The notes: a model not told the origin generated them from the letters alone. DNA of 64,000 nt from Candidatus Aminicenantes bacterium (GCA_963805045.1 CAWDTC010000021.1:45559-109558); one strand, 5' to 3'. Shown: positions 48,758-61,734, counted from the first letter of the stretch. Made by a program: numbers and translations.

Positions 48758-50149
48758 ATGAAGGGCGCCCGCCAGAAGATGCCGGAACGCCCGCCGGATG
48801 TCCGCAACCGCGATTTCAAGGAGGTCAACCTCGGCCTGACGCCGGAGATGGCCCAGGAGGAGGCCCGGCGCTGCCTCGACTGCGCCAATCCCCAGTGCGT
48901 CACCGGCTGCCCCGTGTCCATCGACATCCCGGGCTTCGTCAAGCTCATCGAGGCCGGGCGACTTCCTCGAGGCGGCCTGGAAGCTCAAGGAGACGAACTC
49001 GCTGCCGGCCATCTGCGGCCGCGTCTGCCCGCAGGAATCCCAGTGCGAGGAAGTCTGCACGCTCAAGAAGGCCACCGGGATTTCCGTGGCCATCGGCAAC
49101 CTGGAGCGCTTCGCGGCCGACTTCGAGCGGGGCAGCGGCTCCCTGAAGATCCCGCCCCTGCCGCCGCCGACGGGAAAGAAAGCGGCCGTCATCGGGGCCG
49201 GGCCGGCGGGGCTGACGGTCGCGGGCGACCTGGCCAAGCTCGGCCACAAGGTCACGATCTTCGAGGCCCTCCACGAATCGGGCGGCGTCCTGATCTACGG
49301 CATCCCCGAGTTCCGGCTCCCCAAGGCCATCCTCAAGGCCGAGGTCGATTACCTGCAGGCGGCTCGGCGTCGAGATCCGGACGAGCTTCGTCGTCGGCCT
49401 GACCGCGACGATCGACGACCTGCGGGCCGACGGCTACGAAGCCTTCTTCATCGGCTCGGGCGCGGGACTGCCGAACTTCATGAAGATCCCCGGGCGAGAA
49501 CCTGGTCGGCGTCTACTCGGCCAACGAATACCTGACGCGGGTCAACCTCATGCGGGCCTACGCATTTCCCGAGCTACGACACGCCGGTCTTCAAGGCCAG
49601 GACGGCGGCCGTCATCGGCGGCGGGAACGTCGCCATGGACTCCGTCCGCACGGCCAAGCGGCTGGGCGCCGAGCGGGCCGTCATCGTCTACCGCCGCTCG
49701 CGGACCGAGATGCCCGCCCGGATCGAGGAGATCCACCACGCCGAGGAGGAAGGGATCGAGTTCCAGCTCCTGACGACGCCCGTCCGCTACTTCGGGGACG
49801 AGCACGGACATGTCAGGGCCATGGAATGCCAGAAGATGGGGCTCGGCGAGCCCGACGCTTCGGGCCGGCGGCGCCCCGTCCCGATCGAGGGCTCGGAATA
49901 CACGATGGAGGTCGACCTCGTCGTCTGCGCCATCGGCCAGAGCCCCAACCCGCTCATCCCCCAGACGACGCCCGGCCTCAAGGTCGGCAAATGGGGGAAT
50001 GTCGAGGTCGACTGGACGACCATGGCGACCGAGCATCCCGGGCATCTATGCCGGCGGCGACATCGTCCGGGGCGGGGCGACGGTCATCCTGGCCATGGGA
50101 GACGCCCGGGCTCGCGGCCGCCGAGATCGACAGGTATCTTTGCCGCTGA
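48758..50149 (+). CDS. nfnB: NfnB / GltD-like NADPH-dependent oxidoreductase subunit (FAD, 2x[4Fe-4S]), with about 6 frame breaks
   Basis: MKGARQKMPERPPDVRNRDFKEVNLGL..RCLDCANPQCVTGCPV..ICGRVCPQESQCEEVC..AAVIGAGPAGL..IGGGNVAMD..IYAGGD..AAAEIDRYLCR. The reading steps +1 near 48958, 49366, 49498, 49576, 50032 and 50106. Confidence 0.85.
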
Positions 50150-50359
50150 CCTCGGCCGAGGACCTGAACGACTTTTATAAAGATCCTCCGCCAGACGATA
50201 TTCTTCCTTGATATCGGCAGGGACAGGGGGATCCCTCCCTGGCGATGTTCGAAGCGGTCCGGTGCCTTTCGAAGAAGGCGAACCCGTCCCCCGTCATCGA
50301 GCAAAAATCGTCCGACCCATATCTGGATACGGCAATATGGTTTTGCTCGTCTCAATGCA

Positions 50360-50737
50360 TCAAACACCAATTGAAGTACGGTCATCATTTTCTCGATGAA
50401 AAACTGCCAGATAACAGTCGCTCAAGTAAGTCCTTCGAGCGCTCCCGCCACAGCAATCCGCAAGGGCCGACAGAACGAACATGTGCTCTTCGTTGGGCTT
50501 CAGCTTGCTTTTCTTCGTCCGTCGCGTCTGCCGTCGCTTTGACCATAGCGATGAACCCAATACGTTGTATGGGCCGCGACAGCAAGGAGCAACACCGATC
50601 AGGGTCAGGAGGATCCAGTCCGGAATCACCCACCGGGAGACGTTCAGCTTGACCCCCCACTTGAGTATCCCGAGCACCAACACGACGGCTCCGCATGCCT
50701 CCGCCAAGAACTTGATAAGCGCTCTCCAATAGCTCAT
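50360..50737 (-). CDS. Hypothetical membrane protein, probably broken and continuing toward about 50150 in other frames
   Basis: 125-aa ORF with two hydrophobic helices and a basic linker. Protein-like stretches in two other minus frames follow it (..FDALRRAKPY.., ..PADIKEEYRLAEDLYKS). It is the first gene of the low-GC island. Confidence 0.3.
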   Translation of the reverse strand: MSYWRALIKFLAEACGAVVLVLGILKWGVKLNVSRWVIPDWILLTLIGVAPCCRGPYNVLGSSLWSKRRQTRRTKKSKLKPNEEHMFVLSALADCCGGSARRTYLSDCYLAVFHRENDDRTSIGV

Positions 50738-50797
50738 CTTGACCTCTGGTCAATTGTCATGAGACGAGGCTCCTCCGGCCCATCTCACGCTGATCCC

Positions 50798-51375
50798 CTA
50801 TGAAAAGCCTCTCGCCAAGACTGCCCCAGCCAACAACGGAGTTTCTTGGGCCTTGCACGCTCCCCTTAACGTATCAGCGAAGTGCCATGGCGTCAAGTCG
50901 CCAAGCGAACCGTCCGGCCGGAATTCGTTGTCATCTTCGCGCTACTTCTCTATCGTCTCCGGAGCGTCCTCCATTGACAAGAACCCATTCCCATTCAGGC
51001 ATGTATCCCGAAACGGGCCGTTGACCGACCCGACTGATATTATCGATTCTCGTTAAGGCCCGGCACCGAAGGCCGTCAAAGAGGCTATCGACGACAAAAT
51101 CCATGCTCCATTAGGCGTTAAGTCGGTTCCTCTCCGGCCGGGCTACCCAACGGCTACCCGTGGCATGCCGACGGGAACGCTTGCGCCTCAGGATGCTCGA
51201 CACGTTCCCGCCTCTGGGCAGGCTTCAGAATATTATTGAACTGCCGGTTCTCCTCCTCCCGTTACCTCAAGCAGGGCGAAACGCATTCCTTGATTTTCCC
51301 GACCGGGTTTGCTATACATTTGTTGGGCCTTTTAGGAATCGTGCTTTTCCCCAAATTCTTCGCTTCAGAAAATGA
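50798..51375 (-). mobile_element. Decayed, internally deleted IS3-family transposase relic (OrfA tail plus OrfB fragments)
   Basis: Minus-strand fragments in shifting frames: AQQMYSKPGRENQGM; REEENRQFNNILK (leucine-zipper end of OrfA); LRRKRSRRH..RPERNRLNA*WSMDFVVDSLFDGLRCRALTRIDNISR; FRDTCLNGNGFLSMEDAPETIEK*REDDNEFRPDGSLGDLTPWHFA. The DDE core between them is missing. A TAG sits where the conserved Trp of ..IE.WR.DYN.. belongs. Confidence 0.75.
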
Positions 51376-51397
51376 ACCGAGAATCAGAAGGAGGAAT

Positions 51398-52686
51398 ATG
51401 GTGGCTGATAAATCGTACAATCCATTTGAAATAGCCCAAGCTCAGTTCGACAGAGTGGCTGATCTTCTCGATTTGGACAAGGCGACCCGGGACTTGCTCC
51501 GTTATCCTCTGAGGGAATACCATTTCAGCATCCCCGTTCGCATGGACGACGGCAAGGTCCGGATATTCAGGGGGTTCAGGGTTCAGCATAACGATGCGCG
51601 CGGCCCCGGCAAAGGGGGAATCCGTTTCCATCCGATGGAAAATGTCGATATCGTTCGTGCCCTCGCGATGTGGATGACGTGGAAATGCGCGGTGGTCGAT
51701 ATCCCGTTGGGCGGAAGTAAAGGCGGCGTCGTGTGCGATCCGCACAATTTGAGCCCCCGAGAGCATGAACAGCTCTGCCGCGGCTGGGTCCGCCAGATCG
51801 CCAAGAATGTCGGTCCCCATTTGGATGTTCCGGCTCCCGATGTGATGACGAGCCCGCAACGATGCTGTGGATGCTCGATGAGTTCGAGACGATCCATGGC
51901 GGCAAGTATCCCGGTTTCATCACCGGCAAGCCGGTCAGCATCGGAGGCTCGCAAGGCCGGACGGAAGCGACCGGCTACGGAGTTGTCTTCACGCTCAGGG
52001 AAGCCCTCAAAGATCTGAATCTGAAGGCCGAACAGACTCAAGCCAGTGTCCAGGGATTTGGCAACGTGGCCCAATATGCGATTGAACTGTACCAGCGGAT
52101 CGGCGGGACCGTGACCTGCGTTTCATGCTGGGATCAGGCAGATAAAAGGTCCTACAGCTATCGCAAGAAGCAAGGCGTCGGTCTCGAAGAGCTCTTGAAG
52201 ATCACGGATGCCTTCGGCGGCATTGATCAAAGCGAAGGCCAGGGAGATCGGCTATGAAATACTGCCCGGCGAAGCCTGGATCGAACAGGACGTCGACATT
52301 CTCATCCCGGCCGCTATCGAGAATCAGATCACCGTCGAGAACGTCAACAAAATCGGCAAGCGCGTGAGGATCATTGCCGAAGGGGCCAATGGGCCGACCA
52401 CACCCGAAGCCGACGCCGTGCTCAGGAGCGGGATATTTTCAGGATTCCGGACTTCCTGGCGAATGCCGGCGGCGTGACGTGCAGTTACTTTGAACAAGTC
52501 CAGAGCAACATGAATTATTACTGGGAGAAAGACGAAGTGCTGGCCAAGCTGGATGCCAAAATGACGGCGGCCTATATCGAGGTCCGGGAACTTTCAAGAA
52601 AAAAGAAACTGAATATGAGAGATGCCGCCTATGTCATCTCCATCAATCGGGTCGCTCAGGCATGCCGGGATCGTGGCTGGGTATAG
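51398..52686 (+). CDS. gdhA: Glutamate dehydrogenase (Glu/Leu/Phe/Val dehydrogenase family), with at least 3 frame breaks
   Basis: AAGGAGG then ATG at 51398. [12 protein letters not shown] and [18 protein letters not shown] (catalytic Lys block). Pieces 51862-52257, 52208-52477 and 52474-52686 follow. The first break looks like a lost A in CAAACG near 51858. Confidence 0.85.
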
Positions 52687-52760
52687 CCATTCCGTCCCGG
52701 ACAGATTATGCGGAACTTCAGCGATGCTTGATACAATCGAGACGAGGGGGCTCGAATTCA

Positions 52761-54514
52761 ATGAACAAGCCAAATCAATGGCCATCGGGGGGGCATGACA
52801 TCCAAGAGTTTCAGGGGGAGTTTTTCGATCCCAACCGACGCTTGACCTCGATCGGATCGGGCTCCATCGGCGCCAAGGCCAGCGGATTGGCCTTCATCGA
52901 CGAGGTCTTGAAATCAAAGCTCAACTCCCAGGATTCCGGGCAGATTCAAGTCAGCATTCCTTCCTTGACGGTCATTCGCACCGATGTCTTCGATGCGTTC
53001 CTGAAGCGAAACGGCCTGACCGACATGGCCTATTCAGAATCGGCCAACGACGTGATCGCCCACGCTTTCCAAAAGGCCCTCTTGCCCGCCGAGATCCTCG
53101 GCGACTTGCGCGGCTGATCGAAAAAGTCCACACGCCGCTGGCCATCAGATCTTCCAGCATGCTGGAAGACGCGTTCAATCAGCCCTTCGCCGGCATTTAT
53201 GTCACGAAGATGATCCCCAACAACCAGCCGAGCCCCGATGTCCGCTTTCAGAAGCTGATGGAAGCCATCAAGCTCGTCTACGCCTCCACGTTTTCAAAAT
53301 CGGCCAAGGATTACCTCAAGGCGATCAGGCGTTCCCTGACGACGAAAAGATGGCCGTGATCATCCAGGAGGTGGTCGGTTTGCGTCATGCGGATCGTTTC
53401 TATCCGAACATCTCGGGCATAGCAAAATCGTACAATTTCTATCCTATCGGCCGCTCAAGGCCTGAAGATGGCATGGCCAGCCTGGCCTTGGGCTTGGGAA
53501 AAACGATCGTCGACGGCGGAACATGCTGGACTTACTCGCCGGCCTATCCCGGCATCAGCGCCCCGTGGCCTCGGCCGGCGAGCTCATGGAACAGACTCAA
53601 GACGAATTCTGGGCCATCAACATGGGAAAGCCCCCGGCCTATGACCCTCATTAAAGAAACCGAGTACATGGTGCAGTCGAATCTCTCCGATGCGGAGGCG
53701 GATGGCACGCTGAGCAACATCGCCTCGGTTTATGATGTCCAGGAGGACAGGATTTCCATGGGACTTGACCGCGAAGGGCCGAGGGTGCTCAACTTTGCCG
53801 GCTTGCTCGTCCTGAAAGGAGTTCCCTTGAATGACGTGATCAGTTCTCTCTTGAACATATCTCAACAGGCTCTCGGGGCGCCGGTGGAGATTGAATTTGC
53901 GGCGACGTTCAACCCCTCATCGTTTCGGATTTCTGCAGGTCAGACCGATGGTTGTGCCCGGCGACGAAATTGACATCGCTGAAGAAGAACTCAAAGGGGA
54001 AGACGTCTTCTTAGCGTCCAAAAATGTTTTGGGGAACGGGATCATCGAGACAATCCGGGACATCGTCTACGTCAAGCCGAAAGAGTTTGAAGCCAAGTAC
54101 TCTCCGCGCATCGCTCTGGAATTGGAGACGGTGAACAGAGGACTTCTTGACAAAGGACGGCCTTACTTGCTCATTGGATTCGGCCGATGGGGGAGTTCCG
54201 ATCCCTCGGCTGGGATACCGGTCGAATGGGGACAGGTCTGCGGCGCCAAGGTGATCGTGGAAGCGACCGGGCCGACGATGAAGGTCGAGCTGAGCCAAGG
54301 ATCGCATTTTTTCCACAATCTCAGCAGTTTCGAAGTCTGCTATTTCTGTGTTCCGTATTCAGGTGAATATTCGATCAACTGGGAATGGCTAAGCCGGCAG
54401 AGGGGTGAACAGGAGACTCAGTTTATTCGCCATGTCGTCTTGCCGACCCCCTTGCAAGTTAAAGTCGACGGAAGAAGCGGCCGGGGCGTCATTCGCACGC
54501 CCCGATCTGCCTAA
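52761..54514 (+). CDS. PEP/pyruvate-binding (PPDK_N ATP-grasp) domain protein, paralogue 1, with at least 3 frame breaks
   Basis: IGSGSIGAKASGLAFI, LAIRSSSMLEDAFNQPFAGIY, MAVIIQEVVG, VEIEFAA.., then a C-terminal module LLIGFGRWGSSDP..SQGSHFFHNL. Pieces 52662-53117, 53159-53359, 53350-53973 and 53891-54514. Confidence 0.75.
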
Positions 54515-54534
54515 GGGAGACATCCATAAACATC

Positions 54535-57500
54535 ATGGACAAATCCGTCGAGAACCTGCTCTACGCTCTCAAAGAGCGGGCCAAAGAGCTGAACTGTCTT
54601 TATGAAGTCGAAGGGCTCTTCAACAAGCCTGATGCGTCCCTAACGGCGATTCTGGAGGGAATCGTCCGTGCCATTCCGGCAGGATGGCAGTATCCGGACG
54701 TCTGCCAGGCAAGAATCACCTACGGCGATCACTCGTTTCAGTCGCCGAACTTCAAAGAGACACCGTGGGTTCAAAGCGCCAATATCACCGTCCAGGACGA
54801 AGTCGTCGGAAAAATAAGCGTCTATTATACCGAAGAGAGACCCCGCCGACGAAGGCCCGTTCTTGAGGGAAGAACGTAAGCTCATCGAGACCATTGCCGA
54901 CCGCCTCGAACGCCGAATCTTCTTCGAGAGATCAAGGTCGTCTTCGAAAAGCAAACGGTTGGCAAGGAACGCGCGGTCAATGTTGGGTCGTCCTCGACCT
55001 GTTGAGAAGGACGGACTTGAAGCTCTTAACGCACGTGACCAGAAAGATGCTCAACTATCTGTCATGGTCCGGGATCGCGGAAGCCAACACGCTGTTGGAG
55101 AAGATCAGCCCCGCCTCGATGACGGATCAAGATGACGTTCTTCAGGGCATGAATCGGCCATCGCTGTCAGAGGCCGCCAACGACTCTGACGAATCTACGA
55201 TGATATTTTCAGGATGGCGAACAGGTACTTGGGCGAGAAGGAAGTCTTGAACAGCATTCAGAAGTGGATCATGGAGGATCGCTCCAATTTTCTCGTCAAG
55301 GTCCTCGAGGATCCCGGTTCAACCCTGGCGCAGATCACCAATGCCATCGAGCGATTTCATCACCTGATCCCTCATGGCCTGAACCTGCCCTCCCCGAGGG
55401 AAAAGGGCTTCCGCGTCTCGCTCATTCGAAAGCTCCTCAACGACGATCTGCACTTCATCAATGTCGCGAAGAAGTATCTTGAGGTCGACGATTTCCATGA
55501 TCTGTTGCACCATATCATCTTCCCGGCGGAGTCAGGGAAGACTCGGCGGCAAGGGCTCGGGCCTGTTTCTGGCGTCCCAGATCTTAAAAAAGTCTACAAT
55601 GGACAATGAACCCTCCGCAAGATCAAAACCCCGAAGACCTGGTATCTCACCTCCGACGGCATCATGAATTTCATCAGCCATAACGACCTCGAAGAGATCG
55701 TGGAACAGAAGTACGAGGATATTGACGCGGGTACGGCAGGAATATCCGTATGTCGTCCATGTTTTCAAGAATTCCTCCCTGCCGCCGAAATCGTCAATGC
55801 GCTCTCGGTCGCGCTTGACGATCTCGGCGAGCGTCCTCTCATCGTCAGGAGCTCGAGCCTCCTGGAGGACCGCATCGGAACATCGTTCGCCGGCAAATAC
55901 AAGAGCTTGTTCATCGCCAACCAGGGCAAAAACGGGAGAGGTTGCCGCGCTCATGGACGCCATTGCGGAAGTGTACGCATCGATCTTCAGCCCTGATCCC
56001 ATCGAGTACCGGATTGAGCACGGCATGATCGATTTCAACGAGGAAATGGGCATCCTCATCCAGGAAGTCGTCGGGAAAAAAGTCGGCCATTATTTCATGC
56101 CGGCCTTTGCCGGAGTCGCCTTCTCTCGCAATGAATTCCGTTGGTCGCAGCGCATCCGAAGAGAAGATGGACTGGTGCGAATGGTGCCGGGATTGGGAAC
56201 GCGCGCCGTCGATCGGTTCAGCGATGACTATCCGATTCTGGTCGCCCCGGGGCAGCCGAACCTCCGCGTAAATGTCACCATCGATGAAAAAATACACTAC
56301 TCGCCGAAGAAGATCGATGTCATCAATTTCAGAGACGAATTCATTCGAGACCATCGAAATCCGAGAGCTTCTCAAGATGTACGGAGACGAATATCCGTTG
56401 ATCCACCAGATCGGCTCCGTCTTTCGGAATGACCGGCTGGACCCGCTCGGACCACTAGGGACTGATTTCGAGAAGAGCCGTCGTCCTGACATTCGACGGC
56501 CTCATCAACAACACGCCGTTCATGGAGCAAATTCGCTCCATTCTCAAGGTTCTCGAAACCGAGCTGGGCAACTCCCGTTGATATCGAATTCGCCCATGAC
56601 GGGACAAATCTGCATCTGCTGCAGTGCCGGCCGCAAAGTCACGCCAAAGCCTCTCAGCCGCCCGCAATTCCGAGGGACGTTCCGAAAGACAGAATCCTTT
56701 TCACGGCCAACCGGTATGTCACGAATGGGACCGTTTCGGGCATCACCCACATCGTTTACATCGATCCGCAAAGATACGGAGAACTGACGAACCGGGCCGA
56801 TCTCCTGGCCGTGGGCCGGGCCGTGAGCAAGCTGAATCAAATCCTGCCGAAACGCCAGTTCATTCTCATGGGGCCCGGCCGCTGGGGCAGTCGAGGAGAT
56901 ATCAAACTTGGCGTGAGCGTTTCCTATTCGGATATCAACAATACGGCGATGATCATCGAAATCGCCCGGAAACAGAAAGACTACGTGCCCGAGCTCTCCT
57001 TCGGCACGCATTTCTTCCAGGACTTGGTTGAGGGCTCGATCCGTTACCTTCCCCTTTACCCGGATGACAGGGGAGTCGTGTTCAATGAGGAATTTCTTGC
57101 GAAATCAAAAAACATTCTGCCCGACCTTCTCCCGGAATATTCTTCTCTTTCCGACACCATTCGCGTGATCGAGCTGGCGGACTCTGCGGACGGTCAGGTC
57201 TTCCAGGTCCTCATGAACGGCGAGAGAGATGAGGCGGTCGCCATCTTGGGGAAATCCTCGGCGGAGACGACCATGGCCGCCGAAAAACCCCGGGAGAGGA
57301 ACCCCAAGAAAAGAGAGACGACGCTCACTGGCGATGGCGCCTCAGCAGCGTCGAACATATTGCGGCCAGGATGGACGCTCAGCGGTTCGGCGTGAAGGCC
57401 TTCTATATCTTCGGGAGCACCAAAAACGCGACGGCGGGCCCTGAAAGCGATATCGACATCCTGATCCATTTCAACGGGACGGACACACAAAGGAAGGATC

Positions 57501-57865
57501 TGATGAGCTGGCTCGAAGGATGGAGCCTTTCTTTGAGTGAGGCCAATTACCTGCGGACCGGGCACAAAACGGACGGGTTGCTCGATATCCATATCGTGAC
57601 GGATGAGGATATCCAGAGCAGGACCAGCTTTGCGACCAAGATCGGCGCCATCACGGACGCCCCCAGGTCGCTGCCGATGGGCAAGGACTTAAAAGAGCCG
57701 TCCGCGGGTCAGATAAGCTCTCTCGTCGAGGCTTCCAAGTCATCGAGCCTGAAGCGGACCAGCGCCAGTTCCGGGCCGTCGTGCGCGGCGGAAAAGAGAT
57801 GGGTCCGGCCGATCTTGTCTTTCCAGGAACCGGTGATCCGAGCCGATTCGTGGACGTGTCCGTGA
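54535..57865 (+). CDS. Large multidomain protein with an N-terminal KELNCLY-type sensor-like module, a PPDK_N ATP-grasp domain (paralogue 2) and a C-terminal minimal nucleotidyltransferase domain. It has at least 7 frame breaks. The fusion of the last domain and the 3' end are uncertain.
   Basis: LKERAKELNCLYEVEGLF..GWQYPDVCQARI..DEGPFLREERKLIETIADRLE; GKLGGKGSGLFLA; LIVRSSSLLEDRIGTSFAGKYKS; MGILIQEVVG; DIEFAHDG..LLQCRP; ILMGPGRWGSRGD..SFGTHFFQDL; then KAFYIFGSTKNATAGPESDIDILIHF. The listed stop at 57865 would overlap the convergent gene by 157 nt. Confidence 0.65.
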
Positions 57866-58674
57866 AGAGTCAAGAGCGGTCGATATGTTTCAATGAACCG
57901 TCGAACGCCAATGCTCCCGACGTGGAGATCCAGCGGCACATGATCGACCATCTGGCCGTCCAAGGCGGCCCGGTCGAGGTTGGTTTGATACGGGGGGCTG
58001 TGAAAGAGGAAGATCGCGCGAGAGAGATCGCCCCGTCCGACGAGGTGGTCAAGATCAGCCTTGATGGTGGCCTTTCTCAGGTCGGAATCCGGGACCGGGA
58101 CCGAGCGCGTTCCCTCTTCCGGGCTGATGCAGTCCGGGTCGACATATCGCGAGACATCATAACGTTCCCAGTCTTTCAAGCTGAACGGCGTGGGCGGGAC
58201 GCAGGCATAGCCGAAAACCGAGAATTCCGACAGCCGGACCCGGCGATGATGGATATATTCCCATAGGCCCCGCCGGCTTCCGGCCAGGATCGCCGCTTCC
58301 TCGGAGCGCGGGTCGTCGTTTCCCAGGATCAGAAAGACCCTGGGATAGTCCTTCCCGAGCGCCTTCTTCAATCGCGCGAATCTCGGCGCCAAGAAGTCCT
58401 TGACAAAATCGGGGAAAGCCTCATGCGTCGATGAGAGCGCGAGCAGATAGGATGGGAGGAGATCCCCTCCGAGGAACACCGCCCTCGGGCGCTCCTGTCT
58501 GATCGCCTGAAAAAGCTTCTCGTAACGATCGATGCGTCCGTGCAGGTCGGAGGCAAAGAAGCACGTCGATGGGTCAGAGGACCGATCGCCGGAGATCCTG
58601 TCGGAACCTCTTTTTCGCATGGAAGCATACTCGCCCGGGCCGCCGCCGGAGCCAATCGCCCGTGGCGAGTCCAT
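57709..58674 (-). CDS. Calcineurin-like metallophosphoesterase
   Basis: Intact ORF; the start may be MRKRG at 58620. It has FFASDLHG, FLGGDLL, ILGNDD, LFHSPP and TLHGHVHE metal-binding blocks. Confidence 0.8.
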   Translation of the reverse strand: MDSPRAIGSGGGPGEYASMRKRGSDRISGDRSSDPSTCFFASDLHGRIDRYEKLFQAIRQERPRAVFLGGDLLPSYLLALSSTHEAFPDFVKDFLAPRFARLKKALGKDYPRVFLILGNDDPRSEEAAILAGSRRGLWEYIHHRRVRLSEFSVFGYACVPPTPFSLKDWERYDVSRYVDPDCISPEEGTRSVPVPDSDLRKATIKADLDHLVGRGDLSRAIFLFHSPPYQTNLDRAALDGQMVDHVPLDLHVGSIGVRRFIETYRPLLTLHGHVHESARITGSWKDKIGRTHLFSAAHDGPELALVRFRLDDLEASTRELI

Positions 58675-58804
58675 TATAACTCAATCCCCGTGACGGAGGG
58701 CCCGTACCCCTTCTCCCATGCCGCGGCCTGCCCCCTCTCCTGCCCGGAAACGGCCTTGCGACGCCCCGGGCATTCTCGGGACAGGGCTTCGGAAAACTAA
58801 GACG

Positions 58805-59923: not shown

Positions 59924-61734
59924 ATGGACCACTTCAAAGACATCATCGCCAGGCACAAGAAGGACCCGGGACGCCTCCTGGACATCCTCGCCGACATCCA
60001 GGCCCGGGACGGCCGCGTCCCCGAAACGGCCGTGGCCGAGGTCGCCGGGGCCCTCAAGCTCTCCGAGGCCGACGTCCGCGGCGTCGTCACGTTCTATCAC
60101 TTCTTCTCGCTCGCTTCGCGTGGACGCGCGGCCGTCTATCTGAACGACTCCATCACCTCGCGGATGAACGGCCGGACCGCCGTGGCCCGGGCCTTCGAGG
60201 AGGAGGCCGGCTGCCGCTTCGGCGAGGTCTCCGCCGACGGCCTCGTCGGGCTCTTCCCGACGTCCTGCATCGGCATGAACGACCAGGAGCCCTCGGCCAT
60301 CGTCGGCGGTGTCGTCTTCACCTGCTCTGACTCCCGACAAGGCCCGGGCCATCGTCCGCGGCCTGCGGGCGGGCACACCCGCCCAAAGCCTCGTCGGGAC
60401 CTACGGCGACGGCGCCAATCAGTCCGAGCTCGTCCGGGCCATGGTCTCGAACAACATCCGGAAGCGAGGGCCGGTCCTCTTCGGCCCGTTCGAATCCGGG
60501 TCCGCCGTCAAGGCGGCCCTCTCGATGCAGCCCGACATGGTCATCGACGAGATCAAGCGTTCGGGCCTCCTCGGCCGCGGCGGCGCGGGCTTCCCGACCG
60601 GCCTCAAGTGGGAGTTCTGCCGGAAGGAAAAAGGCGATCGCCACTACGTCGTCTGCAACGCCGACGAGGGCGAGCCCGGGACCTTCAAGGACCGGGTCAT
60701 CCTGACCGAGCTGCCGCGCCTCCTCTTCGAGGGCATGGCCGTCGCCGGCTACGCCGTCGGCGCCCGCGAAGGGATCCTCTACCTCCGGGCCGAGTATTCC
60801 TACCTCAAGCCCTATCTCGAGTCGGTCCTCGAGGCCCTCCGCCGCGAACACGTCCTGGGCAGGAAGGTCGCCGGCTCGGCCGGCTTCGACTTCGACATCG
60901 CCATCAAGTCGGGCGCCGGCGCCTACGTCTGCGGCGAGGAATCGGCCCTCCTGGAATCGGCCGAGGGACAGAGGGGAGAGCCGCGCGACAGGCCGCCGTT
61001 CCCTGTCCAGTTTGGCTATCTCGGCCAGCCGACGACCGTCAACAACGTCGAGACGCTGGCCGCGGCCGCGCAGATCCTGGTCCACGGCGCCGCCTGGTTC
61101 ACATCCTTCGGAATTGCCGAAATCGGCCGGCACGAAGCTCCTCAGCGTCTCCGGCGACTGCGCCGCTCCGGGCGTCTACGAGGTTGAGTTCGGCCTGACC
61201 GTCCAGGAGCTCTTGGACATGGCCGGGGCCAAGGACGTCCGGGCGGTCCAGGTCGGCGGGCCCTCCGGGACGTGCCTCTCGAGGTCCGGCTTCGGCCGGA
61301 GGATCAGCTTCACGGACCTGGCGACGGGCGGCTCCGTCATCGTCTTCGGACGGGACCGGGACATCTTCGAGGTCGTCGAGAACTTCATGGAGTTCTTCGT
61401 CGAGGAATCCTGCGGCTGGTGCACGCCCTGCCGGGCGGGGAACGTCCTCCTCAAGAGAAAGTTCGAAAAGGTCGTCGCCGGCCGGGGTGCCGTCCAGGAC
61501 CTCAAGGACCTCGAGGACTGGGGGAAGCTCGTCAAGGCCACCAGCCGCTGCGGCCTCGGCCAGACCTCGCCCAACCCCATTCTGACGACGCTCCAGAACT
61601 TCCGCGAGCTCTACGAGGTGAAGATCCAGCAGGGAGTGGATTTCGTCCCCGATTTCGACCTCCGGACCGCGCTCCAGGACGGCTGCACCGCTGCCAACCG
61701 GCAGCCCGAGTGCAAGGAGTCCCTCCATGACTGA
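59924..61734 (+). CDS. hoxF: HoxF-type diaphorase subunit (NuoE-like N-terminal domain fused to a NuoF-like FMN/NAD/[4Fe-4S] domain), with two frame breaks near 60320 and 61110
   Basis: Pieces 59924-.., 60309-61187 (LLGRGGAGFPTGLKW, VCNADEGEPGTF) and 61012-61734 (ESCGWCTPCR, CGLGQTSPNP). The NuoE-like part reads YLNDSITSRMNG and SCIGMNDQEP, so most [2Fe-2S] cysteines are replaced. Confidence 0.8.

Follow-up and report, generated by a model that had tools for sequence, protein, structure and literature searches.

Two adjacent PPDK_N-type ATP-grasp genes without swivel or TIM-barrel domains, located downstream of a glutamate dehydrogenase gene in a Candidatus Aminicenantes bacterium

Introduction

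Phosphoenolpyruvate (PEP) synthase (PpsA) and pyruvate phosphate dikinase (PPDK) possess an N-terminal ATP-grasp domain of the PF01326 (PPDK_N) family, a swivel domain with the motif GG-x-TSHAA and a PEP/pyruvate-binding TIM barrel. Rifampicin phosphotransferase (RPH; PDB 5fbs, 5hv1) and the prodigiosin ligases PigC and RedH use the PPDK_N domain on other substrates. They lack the pyruvate TIM barrel and retain a recognisable swivel His domain. In EI-Ntr (PtsP) a GAF-type sensor is placed N-terminal to a phosphotransfer enzyme that consists of swivel and TIM barrel and has no ATP-grasp domain. GlnE/GlnD and AceK reversibly nucleotidylylate or phosphorylate a branch-point enzyme of nitrogen or carbon metabolism in response to metabolite sensing.

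The window analysed here, that is, the whole stretch of 64,000 nucleotides from a Candidatus Aminicenantes bacterium, contains two adjacent genes, A and B. Like PEP synthase and PPDK, their products carry an N-terminal PF01326 domain with the same catalytic motifs and a further domain right after it. Unlike these enzymes, they have neither swivel nor TIM barrel; a module of about 180 residues is present instead, and the genes form a tandem pair beside a glutamate dehydrogenase (GDH) gene. RPH and PigC/RedH are the best sequence matches of the ATP-grasp part and likewise do without the pyruvate TIM barrel, but they have no GAF domain, nucleotidyltransferase or GDH context. The product of B resembles PtsP in the position of its putative sensor, and the PtsP GAF domain (3ci6) is among its fold matches, whereas the enzyme part of B is an ATP-grasp. 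The nucleotidyltransferase of B belongs to the Pol-beta superfamily, as do those of GlnE/GlnD. The likeness to GlnE/GlnD and AceK is a functional analogy only, since the catalytic core of A and B is a PPDK-type ATP-grasp and the target is only putative; no GlnE, GlnD or AceK domain was detected in A or B among Pfam matches at E ≤ 1. In contrast to the minimal nucleotidyltransferases of the MntA type, whose model it matches weakly, the C-terminal domain of B is fused to an enzyme of 930 residues, with no toxin-antitoxin context.

Results and discussion

Organization of genes A and B

Gene A (52761..54514, plus strand) encodes a protein of approximately 584 amino acids, 90% identical to the intact orthologue P0001. 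It consists of a PPDK_N ATP-grasp nucleotide-binding domain (52863..53971) and a C-terminal module, the C-module (53987..54511). In P0001, PF01326 matches residues 35-404 with an E-value of 1.9e-31 and covers profile positions 3-316 of 328. The translation of A contains the blocks GAKASGL, AIRSSSMLED..FAG, VIIQEVVG, VEIEFA and LLIGFGRWGSSDP...SQGSHFFHNL. The motifs GxGxxGxKA, RSSSxLED, PFAG, QE, VEIEFA and LQxRP are invariant in 16 A proteins.

Gene B (54535..57698, plus strand), delimited by tblastn with the B protein of the related locus L001, encodes approximately 1058 amino acids in five parts. The first is a GAF-like putative sensor domain (54535..54847), for which a structure model of medium quality (pLDDT 76.7) was compared by Foldseek. 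The top matches were consistently GAF domains (Nlh2, NifA, Nlh1 and PtsP), with a probability of about 1, a target TM of about 0.5 and E-values from 5e-3 to 0.2. The Pfam GAF profiles gave no match on the full protein; two fragments bear the NCBI name 'GAF domain-containing'. All 22 B proteins compared share two cysteines in this domain, C21 and C57. An all-helical region (54848..55532; helices H112-H332 in the model), for which no Pfam match was found, leads to the ATP-grasp domain (55539..56660). PF01326 matches residues 338-712 of the intact B orthologue P0121 (E 6.4e-58, profile 3-317 of 328), and the fragments of B in the window with E-values of 9.1e-11 and 3.5e-20. The ATP-grasp motifs are invariant across the 22 B proteins, and the translation of B contains the blocks GGKGSGL, IVRSSSLLED..FAG, ILIQEVVG, VDIEFA and ILMGPGRWGSRGD...SFGTHFFQDL. 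The C-module of B (56670..57239) is followed by a minimal nucleotidyltransferase of the Pol-beta/MNT type (57311..57697). The segment 57371-57865 matches PF01909 (2.4e-08) and PF18765 (2.4e-07). The catalytic pattern G-[SG]-x(9-13)-[DE]-h-[DE]-h is present in B, and its motif G964 S965 ... S975 D976 x D978 is intact and invariant in the 22 B proteins.

A reading made from the sequence alone had described these genes as adjacent PPDK_N ATP-grasp paralogues, the second of them fused to sensor-like and nucleotidyltransferase domains. The profile matches to the window fragments of both genes and to the whole profile in their intact orthologues bear out the first point, and all motif blocks quoted in that reading are present in the translations. 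The second point agrees with the nucleotidyltransferase match and, at the level of a predicted fold, with the GAF-like assignment. As to the extent then given, 52761-57865, the start of A at 52761 stands, while B ends at 57698 by homology; its open reading frame runs on to 57865 because the stop codon has been lost in the window.

The shared C-terminal module

The C-modules of A and B are homologous, as shown by hhalign (98.8%, E 1e-16, 122 columns). They are of alpha/beta type and occupy the place that the swivel domain has in PEP synthase. The conserved features are a loop G-x-G-R-W-G-S and a helix start S-x-G-[ST]-H-F. In A the GRWGS loop lies at 54182-54196 and the G-S-H-F-F helix start at 54299-54313; in B, GRWGS lies at 56877-56891 and G-T-H-F-F at 57003-57017. 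GPGRWGSRGD and SFGTHFFQD are invariant in B C-modules, and in 27 C-modules drawn from all architectures the residues R, W, E, S and H do not vary. The invariant histidine is H516 in P0001 and H829 in P0121.

No library assigned the module. Seven isolated modules gave no Pfam match at E ≤ 10. The AlphaFold model of the A module (53957-54511; pLDDT 92.6, pTM 0.90) had no fold match in the PDB by Foldseek (best E 0.11, TM below 0.27) and none in BFVD. The sequence-only reading had already pointed to a shared module and to the lack of swivel and TIM-barrel domains, and neither of these domains was detected by motif, Pfam, profile-profile comparison or fold search. The swivel motif GG-x-[TS]SH-AA is absent from all six frames of the window. 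The full proteins gave no Pfam match to PEP-utilisers or to the TIM barrel (PF02896) at E ≤ 1, nor did the seven C-modules at E ≤ 10, and A stops at residue 584, directly past the C-module. Profile searches do not assign the module to the PEP-utilising mobile domain. A and B thus combine a full PPDK_N ATP-grasp domain with neither a swivel phosphohistidine domain nor a PEP/pyruvate TIM barrel.

Genomic context of the cassette

The gene directly upstream of A encodes a GDH of the ELFV family (51401..52686, plus strand, approximately 428 amino acids), identified by Pfam and tblastn. Its fragments match ELFV_dehydrog_N (4.6e-49) and ELFV_dehydrog. A calcineurin-like metallophosphoesterase gene (57709..58674, minus strand) is convergent with B and intact in the window, where tblastn gives a single HSP. 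Its product matches positions 5-190 of 191 of PF00149 (1.3e-09), and the metal-binding motifs DLHG, GGDL, GNDD and GHVH are readable in the translation. The order GDH, A, B, phosphoesterase is the same as in the related loci L001-L005.

The 80 best-scoring of at least 586 loci were surveyed, a selection by which the neighbour frequencies may be inflated. Among them, a GDH gene lies on the same strand directly upstream of A in 65 of 70 related loci from many phyla, B follows A directly in 71 of 76, and a phosphoesterase gene lies downstream in 43 of 61, in 41 of these on the opposite strand. The median gap between A and B is 21 nt in the related loci. The pairing of the paralogues and the neighbouring metallophosphoesterase, both raised by the sequence-only reading, recur beyond this genome, although the phosphoesterase is absent from about 30% of the loci. 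The near-obligate operon link to GDH, which we regard as the strongest clue, had escaped that reading, as had the A-B fusions and the very large size of the family. The GDH-A-B cassette was found in Bacteroidota, Ignavibacteriota, Calditrichota, Acidobacteriota, Planctomycetota and others; across phyla it keeps its GDH context, which has a housekeeping character, at a protein identity of 60%. No phage or mobile-element neighbours were seen in the locus neighbourhoods.

In natural A-B fusions of about 1640 amino acids (P0208, P0241), both the PPDK_N stretch and the C-module occur twice. A third paralogue, 22% identical and with the motifs GRLGS and GTHFL, adjoins a second GDH. Further, more distant paralogues are found beside GDH genes as well, and some of them are fused to receiver domains (L063, L064, L088, the cultured Parabacteroides distasonis, and Phocaeicola massiliensis); other receiver-fused paralogues are located away from GDH (L086, L089, L092).

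Proposed function and alternative explanations

The fusion of GAF-like and receiver sensor domains to the catalytic core, together with the accompanying phosphoesterase, suggests a regulatory character. A phosphoryl- or nucleotidyl-transfer modification system, the speculative reading made from the sequence alone, remains the best one. We tentatively propose that A and B form, as its two subunits, a single transferase that consumes ATP and acts together with the upstream GDH, the likeliest role being a covalent-modification switch on GDH. The GAF-like domain would sense nitrogen/carbon status or redox state. The ATP-grasp domains would cleave ATP and transfer a phosphoryl or pyrophosphoryl group onto the invariant histidine of the C-module, which may be a phosphocarrier or acceptor site of a new kind; the role of phosphate carrier is assigned to this histidine solely from its conservation and position. 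The phosphoryl group, and a nucleoside monophosphate from the nucleotidyltransferase, would then be transferred to GDH or to a GDH-bound partner, and the metallophosphoesterase would take the mark off.

Adjacency of the genes does not tell whether GDH itself is the target or whether A and B share a metabolite with it (2-oxoglutarate, glutamate or ammonia). A and B may instead be metabolic, a dikinase-like enzyme that spends ATP to activate a small molecule connected with the GDH reaction. Candidates are 2-oxoglutarate or its enol or imine form, glutamate and ammonia, and the C-module would serve as a substrate-binding or phosphocarrier domain. PPDK_N-type enzymes that phosphorylate pyruvate, phenol, rifampicin or glucans set a precedent for this. 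It is also consistent with the GDH-A-B operon order with its short gaps and with the retention of every ATP-grasp catalytic residue. The closest named relatives by sequence, PEP synthase, PigC/RedH and rifampicin phosphotransferase, likewise act on small molecules as dikinases or ligases; the ATP-grasp match to the latter two is weak. However, the GAF-like and receiver fusions, the nucleotidyltransferase and the phosphoesterase would be more usual in a regulatory enzyme. In addition, each of the separate GDH paralogues is accompanied by a PPDK_N-C-module paralogue of its own, an arrangement better explained by protein-protein specificity than by a metabolite in common. No pathway is known to require such an activation step, and we regard a metabolic enzyme as possible but rather doubtful. 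A similar degree of doubt applies to the C-module being a strongly diverged swivel domain, which would make A and B ordinary dikinases of the rifampicin phosphotransferase/PigC type with ATP-grasp and His carrier. The location directly after the ATP-grasp and the order of predicted strands and helices, which we take to resemble that of the swivel domain, speak for it. The best hhalign path pairs G-S-H with T-S-H, YLLIGF with ILV, KVIVEA with GILT and VDGRSG with (D/N)GSTG. Its score against eight swivel sequences (PF00391), however, was 15.7 (P 0.097) and was equalled by 3 of 30 column-shuffled controls, so that homology is unsupported. The Pfam PEP-utilizers profile was silent on the modules, and no PPDK, EI, PEPS or RPH chain was among the Foldseek matches listed, despite the isolated swivel domain 2fm4 being a solved PDB entry. 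The RPH swivel, by comparison, is readily found by sequence (residues 777-861 against the PEP synthase swivel, 5.8e-17). That A and B are simply PEP synthase or PPDK genes, as database names have it, is very improbable: the best scores with the NCBIfam PEPS/PPDK models are 55-60 bits against cut-offs of 598-883 (for example, 55 against 883), A has just 584 residues, and the missing swivel and TIM-barrel domains refute this identity. Equally remote is the idea that the nucleotidyltransferase forms the core of an anti-phage defence or toxin-antitoxin system. The weak matches of this domain to the PADLOC candidate PDC-S09 and to the MntA antitoxin model would fit it, but the PDC-S09 matches are generic to MNT domains, A, the ATP-grasp domains and the C-module have no PADLOC match, a HEPN partner is absent, and the context is housekeeping-like and free of phage or mobile-element neighbours.

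The cassette could also be dead in this genome. Compared with an intact relative of 88% identity, A contains five one-base frame-breaking indels (at 53111, 53335, 53566, 53650 and 53919) and B contains 14, approximately 19 small indels together. GDH has three frameshifts, and the GDH of L001 used as tblastn query gives four HSPs in alternating frames. These defects, together with the lost stop codon of B, the intact state of other window genes, ribosomal ones included, and the fact that the indels are not obviously limited to homopolymers, would be expected of true pseudogenes. The lineage-specific substitutions, on the other hand, are distributed N:S as 8:21, 11:41 and 39:123, a synonymous bias as strong as in intact relatives, and none of them creates a stop codon. 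Purifying selection and the absence of new stop codons make sequence errors more likely than decay. The gltD-like gene at 48.8-50.2 kb, unrelated and high in GC, is also frameshifted, and the indel-rich stretch ends ahead of the phosphoesterase gene; with the synonymous bias, this indicates a local consensus-quality problem at about 48.9-57.7 kb. Pseudogenization of GDH, A and B is thus unlikely.

Taken to its full breadth, the proposed modification of GDH would place this enzyme, which is central to nitrogen and amino-acid metabolism, under a novel covalent-modification cascade in a large part of bacteria (among them the FCB group, Acidobacteriota, Planctomycetota and gut Bacteroidales). In this cascade an ATP-grasp of the PPDK type, gated by a GAF or receiver domain, would load phosphate on a new His-bearing carrier fold (GRWGS/G-S-H-F-F) and mark GDH with the help of the fused nucleotidyltransferase, and a dedicated phosphoesterase would erase the mark. 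We consider this wide version conceivable rather than probable. If true, it would parallel the control of glutamine synthetase by adenylylation, with entirely different parts.

No paper on the A/B family was found in literature searches. The family search returned more than 6000 relatives of B. The family is common, and databases label its members with unspecific or wrong names: 'PEP/pyruvate-binding domain-containing protein', 'pyruvate, water dikinase', 'phosphoenolpyruvate synthase' and 'pyruvate, phosphate dikinase'.

Organization and state of the cassette in the window

The four genes of the cassette occupy 51.3-58.7 kb of the window. A glutamate dehydrogenase (GDH) gene (51401-52686, + strand), recognized by ELFV dehydrogenase Pfam domains on fragments upstream of the pair, is followed by gene A (52761-54514, + strand) and gene B (54535-57698, + strand). 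Fragments of both A and B match PPDK_N (PF01326), and the last fragment of B matches NTP_transf_2/Polbeta. A metallophosphoesterase gene (58674-57709, − strand; Pfam Metallophos) converges on B. The plus-strand genes GDH, A and B are split into many pieces in the ORF list of the window. The repaired A sequence has at least 8000 relatives, the top one being P0001, a protein of 584 aa with 90% identity. On the contigs of P0001 and of a second relative, P0002, the same genes are found in the same order and all intact: GDH, A (584 aa), B (1058 aa) and, on the opposite strand, the phosphoesterase. These contigs align with the window over 7.4 kb at 87–88% DNA identity.

Compared with the reference locus L001, the window contains 27 indels, almost all only 1-2 bases long. 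Three of the frame-breaking ones fall in GDH, five in A and 14 in B. The stop codon of B is also lost: the TAG of the relatives is replaced by GAG together with a 3-base deletion. The sequence-only reading placed the end of the pair at 57865. The open reading frame does reach this position because the deletion removes the stop codon, but by homology gene B itself ends at 57698. The resulting 55-residue extension (57697-57865) runs into the 3′ end of the phosphoesterase gene on the other strand.

Just upstream, at 48.8-50.2 kb, a gltD-like gene of high GC content and no relation to the cassette shows at least five frame switches. The phosphoesterase at 57.7-58.7 kb is intact, and elsewhere in the window (35-43 kb) L21, L27, Obg, NadD, RsfS, RlmH and rubrerythrin each give a single unbroken match. 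Most substitutions confined to the window lineage are synonymous: the nonsynonymous to synonymous counts are 8:21 in GDH, 11:41 in A and 39:123 in B. The intact relatives do no better on this measure, and no stop codon was created by substitution. Since the substitutions show purifying selection and the gltD-like gene is also frame-broken, the indels over ~48.9-57.7 kb suggest a local sequence or consensus-quality problem of the assembly rather than old pseudogenes. Decay specific to the cassette was set aside as the preferred reading on the same two grounds.

The GC content of the cassette is 0.53-0.56 versus 0.63-0.70 in the flanks (window 50000-58700; L001 8500-15900; related locus L002 8560-15940), and its between-genome DNA identity is 87-88% versus 77% for the ribosomal-protein cluster. 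These contrasts may stem from an ancient horizontal transfer or from strong constraint on the sequence. In the closest relatives, two GDH genes of 429 and 428 aa bracket the cassette (L002 8684-17377). The window has no second GDH gene, and a NuoE-like 2Fe-2S gene (59924-61198) comes after the phosphoesterase.

Domain composition of A and B

All of the motifs quoted in the sequence-only reading were recovered by three-frame translation, and its assignment of a PPDK_N ATP-grasp domain to both genes holds on the intact orthologues, where PF01326 spans the whole profile (A residues 35-404, B residues 338-712). The nucleotide- and metal-binding motifs of the PPDK_N family, GGKG/A, RSSSxLED, FAG, QE, (V/D)IEFA and LQxRP, show no variation across 16 A and 22 B proteins, and judged by these residues the ATP-grasp domains of A and B look active. 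The reported absence of the phosphohistidine (swivel) domain and of the PEP/pyruvate TIM barrel was likewise borne out: neither gave a Pfam match at E≤1 on intact A and B orthologues, and GG-x-TSHAA is absent from all frames of the window. The NCBIfam models for PEP synthase, PPDK, rifampicin phosphotransferase (RPH) and PigC score A and B at only ~20-60 bits, far under their cut-offs (456-1700 bits). The A–B pair is a variant within the PPDK_N enzyme world; for lack of a detectable swivel domain it falls outside both PEP synthase/PPDK and the RPH/PigC-type dikinases.

The nucleotidyltransferase fusion described for B is real: the last 130 residues form a minimal nucleotidyltransferase with an invariant G-S...D-x-D motif. 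The first 105 residues, in a medium-confidence model, consistently match the GAF domains of Nlh2, NifA, Nlh1 and PtsP in Foldseek, with probability ~1, target TM ~0.5 and weak E-values; a helical region follows this GAF-like domain. C21 and C57 of B (KELNCLY, PDVC; window 54595-54705) are invariant in an alignment of 22 full-length B proteins and 34 N-terminal fragments, and this conserved pair could form a redox-, metal- or cofactor-binding site.

The shared C-terminal module

Homology between the ~180-residue C-terminal modules of A and B, as the sequence-only reading proposed, is borne out by hhalign (98.8%, E 1e-16, 122 columns). G-x-G-R-W-G, one Glu and S-x-G-x-H-F are invariant in 27 modules from all architectures. 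The AlphaFold model of the A module of the window (53957-54511; pLDDT 92.6, pTM 0.90) shows an alpha/beta core with small sheets at its flanks. A Foldseek search of the PDB with this model returned nothing significant (best E 0.11, TM <0.27), no match was obtained in BFVD, and seven diverse modules gave no Pfam match at E≤10. The module, confidently modelled yet without a solved-fold match or a Pfam model, is therefore a candidate new domain family.

The module lies directly after the ATP-grasp domain, has a Gly-rich loop and begins one helix with G-[ST]-H, and its origin as a diverged swivel domain was therefore tested. The module was compared by hhalign with four and then eight swivel sequences, the eight coming from PDB alignments, using 30 column-shuffled controls. 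With eight sequences the score was 15.7 (P 0.097), and three of the 30 controls scored as high. The top path pairs GSH with TSH and VDGRSG with DGSTG, without statistical support. Neither Pfam, a profile search of PDB sequences nor Foldseek favours reading GRWGS...G-S-H-F-F...VDGRSG as a swivel, an idea we keep only as a rival to the candidate new family. In agreement with the sequence-only reading, none of these searches assigns the module to the ordinary PEP-utilising mobile domain.

Distribution and gene neighbourhood

A full HMMER search that used only the module as query yielded 1506 clusters at the 50%-identity level, and in every protein checked with Pfam the module comes after a PPDK_N domain. 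The architectures include the A type (~580 aa), a form with a DUF5752-like region (~750 aa), N-terminal receiver domains joined to PPDK_N and the module (~990 aa), and A–B fusions (~1640 aa) with two module copies. Outside the window, six such single-chain fusions (P0208, P0217, P0220, P0229, P0241 and P0244; 1630-1654 aa) contain two PPDK_N domains and two modules; they are independent evidence of A and B acting together. B has more than 6000 relatives and keeps ~60% identity across phyla. Database names of A and B relatives are generic or wrong (PEP synthase, PPDK, "pyruvate, water dikinase").

Scanning one genome for each GTDB species gave at least 586 encoding stretches, of which the best 80 belong to Bacteroidota, Ignavibacteriota, Calditrichota, Zixibacteria, Eisenbacteria, Acidobacteriota, Aminicenantes, Planctomycetota and others, and neighbours were counted at those of the 80 with enough flank. 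Among these best 80 of at least 586, a same-strand GDH gene lies directly upstream of A in 65 of 70 loci, and B lies directly downstream of A in 71 of 76 (median gap 21 nt). The adjacent phosphoesterase pointed out in the sequence-only reading occurs within 4.5 kb in 43 of 61 loci, on the opposite strand in 41 of those 43. No further conserved neighbour was found in the loci surveyed. A third paralogue (~552 aa, 22% identical to A, with GRLGS/GTHFL) is grouped with a second GDH, of 453 aa, in Aminicenantes-like genomes, beside the main cassette (L024 4963-6618; L032 6730-8388; L040 18134-19801; L042 6815-8473). Receiver-fused paralogues adjoin GDH in L063, L064, L088, Parabacteroides distasonis and Phocaeicola massiliensis; those of L086, L089 and a Prevotella record do not.

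Proposed function

The analysis confirms the observation and supports the cautious interpretation of the sequence-only reading. What it adds is the connection to GDH, the fused forms, the wide extent of the family and a module fold that appears to be new. From the active-looking ATP-grasp domains, the conserved module with its invariant His, the sensor and nucleotidyltransferase fusions, the A–B fusions and the strong GDH link, we infer a sensor-gated, ATP-driven system in which A and B would transfer a phosphoryl or nucleotidyl group, acting on GDH, and the phosphoesterase would erase the mark. The logic is comparable to that of glutamine synthetase adenylylation and of AceK, although the parts differ. 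The main rival is a dikinase-like metabolic activation of a GDH-linked small molecule by A and B. Adjacency to GDH by itself does not discriminate between these readings; we lean towards regulation because sensor domains are fused to the enzymes and because the paralogues pair one to one with GDH paralogues. A defence role was rejected, PADLOC giving generic MNT matches only. No paper on the family turned up when the literature was searched for the domain combination, for the cassette and for DUF5752.

GDH stands where carbon and nitrogen metabolism meet, and to our knowledge its post-translational control is poorly understood in most bacteria. Because a highly conserved pair (~60% identity across phyla, thousands of sequences) directly follows GDH in many lineages and has relatives beside gdhA in cultured human-gut Bacteroidales, A and B are a specific candidate, open to experimental test, for controlling GDH or for carrying out a hitherto unrecognized ATP-dependent step of glutamate metabolism. 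The misleading PEP synthase/PPDK names can lead metabolic reconstructions of uncultured Aminicenantes, Ignavibacteria and Acidobacteria astray.

In the cultured gut Bacteroidales P. distasonis (L091 5148-9632) and P. massiliensis (L093), a receiver-PPDK_N-module protein (984 aa, WP_041525632.1 in P. distasonis) is encoded next to gdhA in divergent orientation, and a second GDH gene lies 3.5-4 kb away. The P. distasonis neighbours annotated as "nucleotidyltransferase family protein" and "RapZ" were considered as a parallel to the nucleotidyltransferase of B; by Pfam they are a sugar-phosphate NTP_transferase and an APH kinase, and are probably foreign to the A/B system. Candidate B. thetaiotaomicron locus tags gave no link to the family, BT_1971 being a catalase. 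GDH activity in B. thetaiotaomicron reportedly depends on genes near gdhA (a 1996 report), which may be related. The cultured gut Bacteroidales with a receiver-fused paralogue offer a genetically tractable model.
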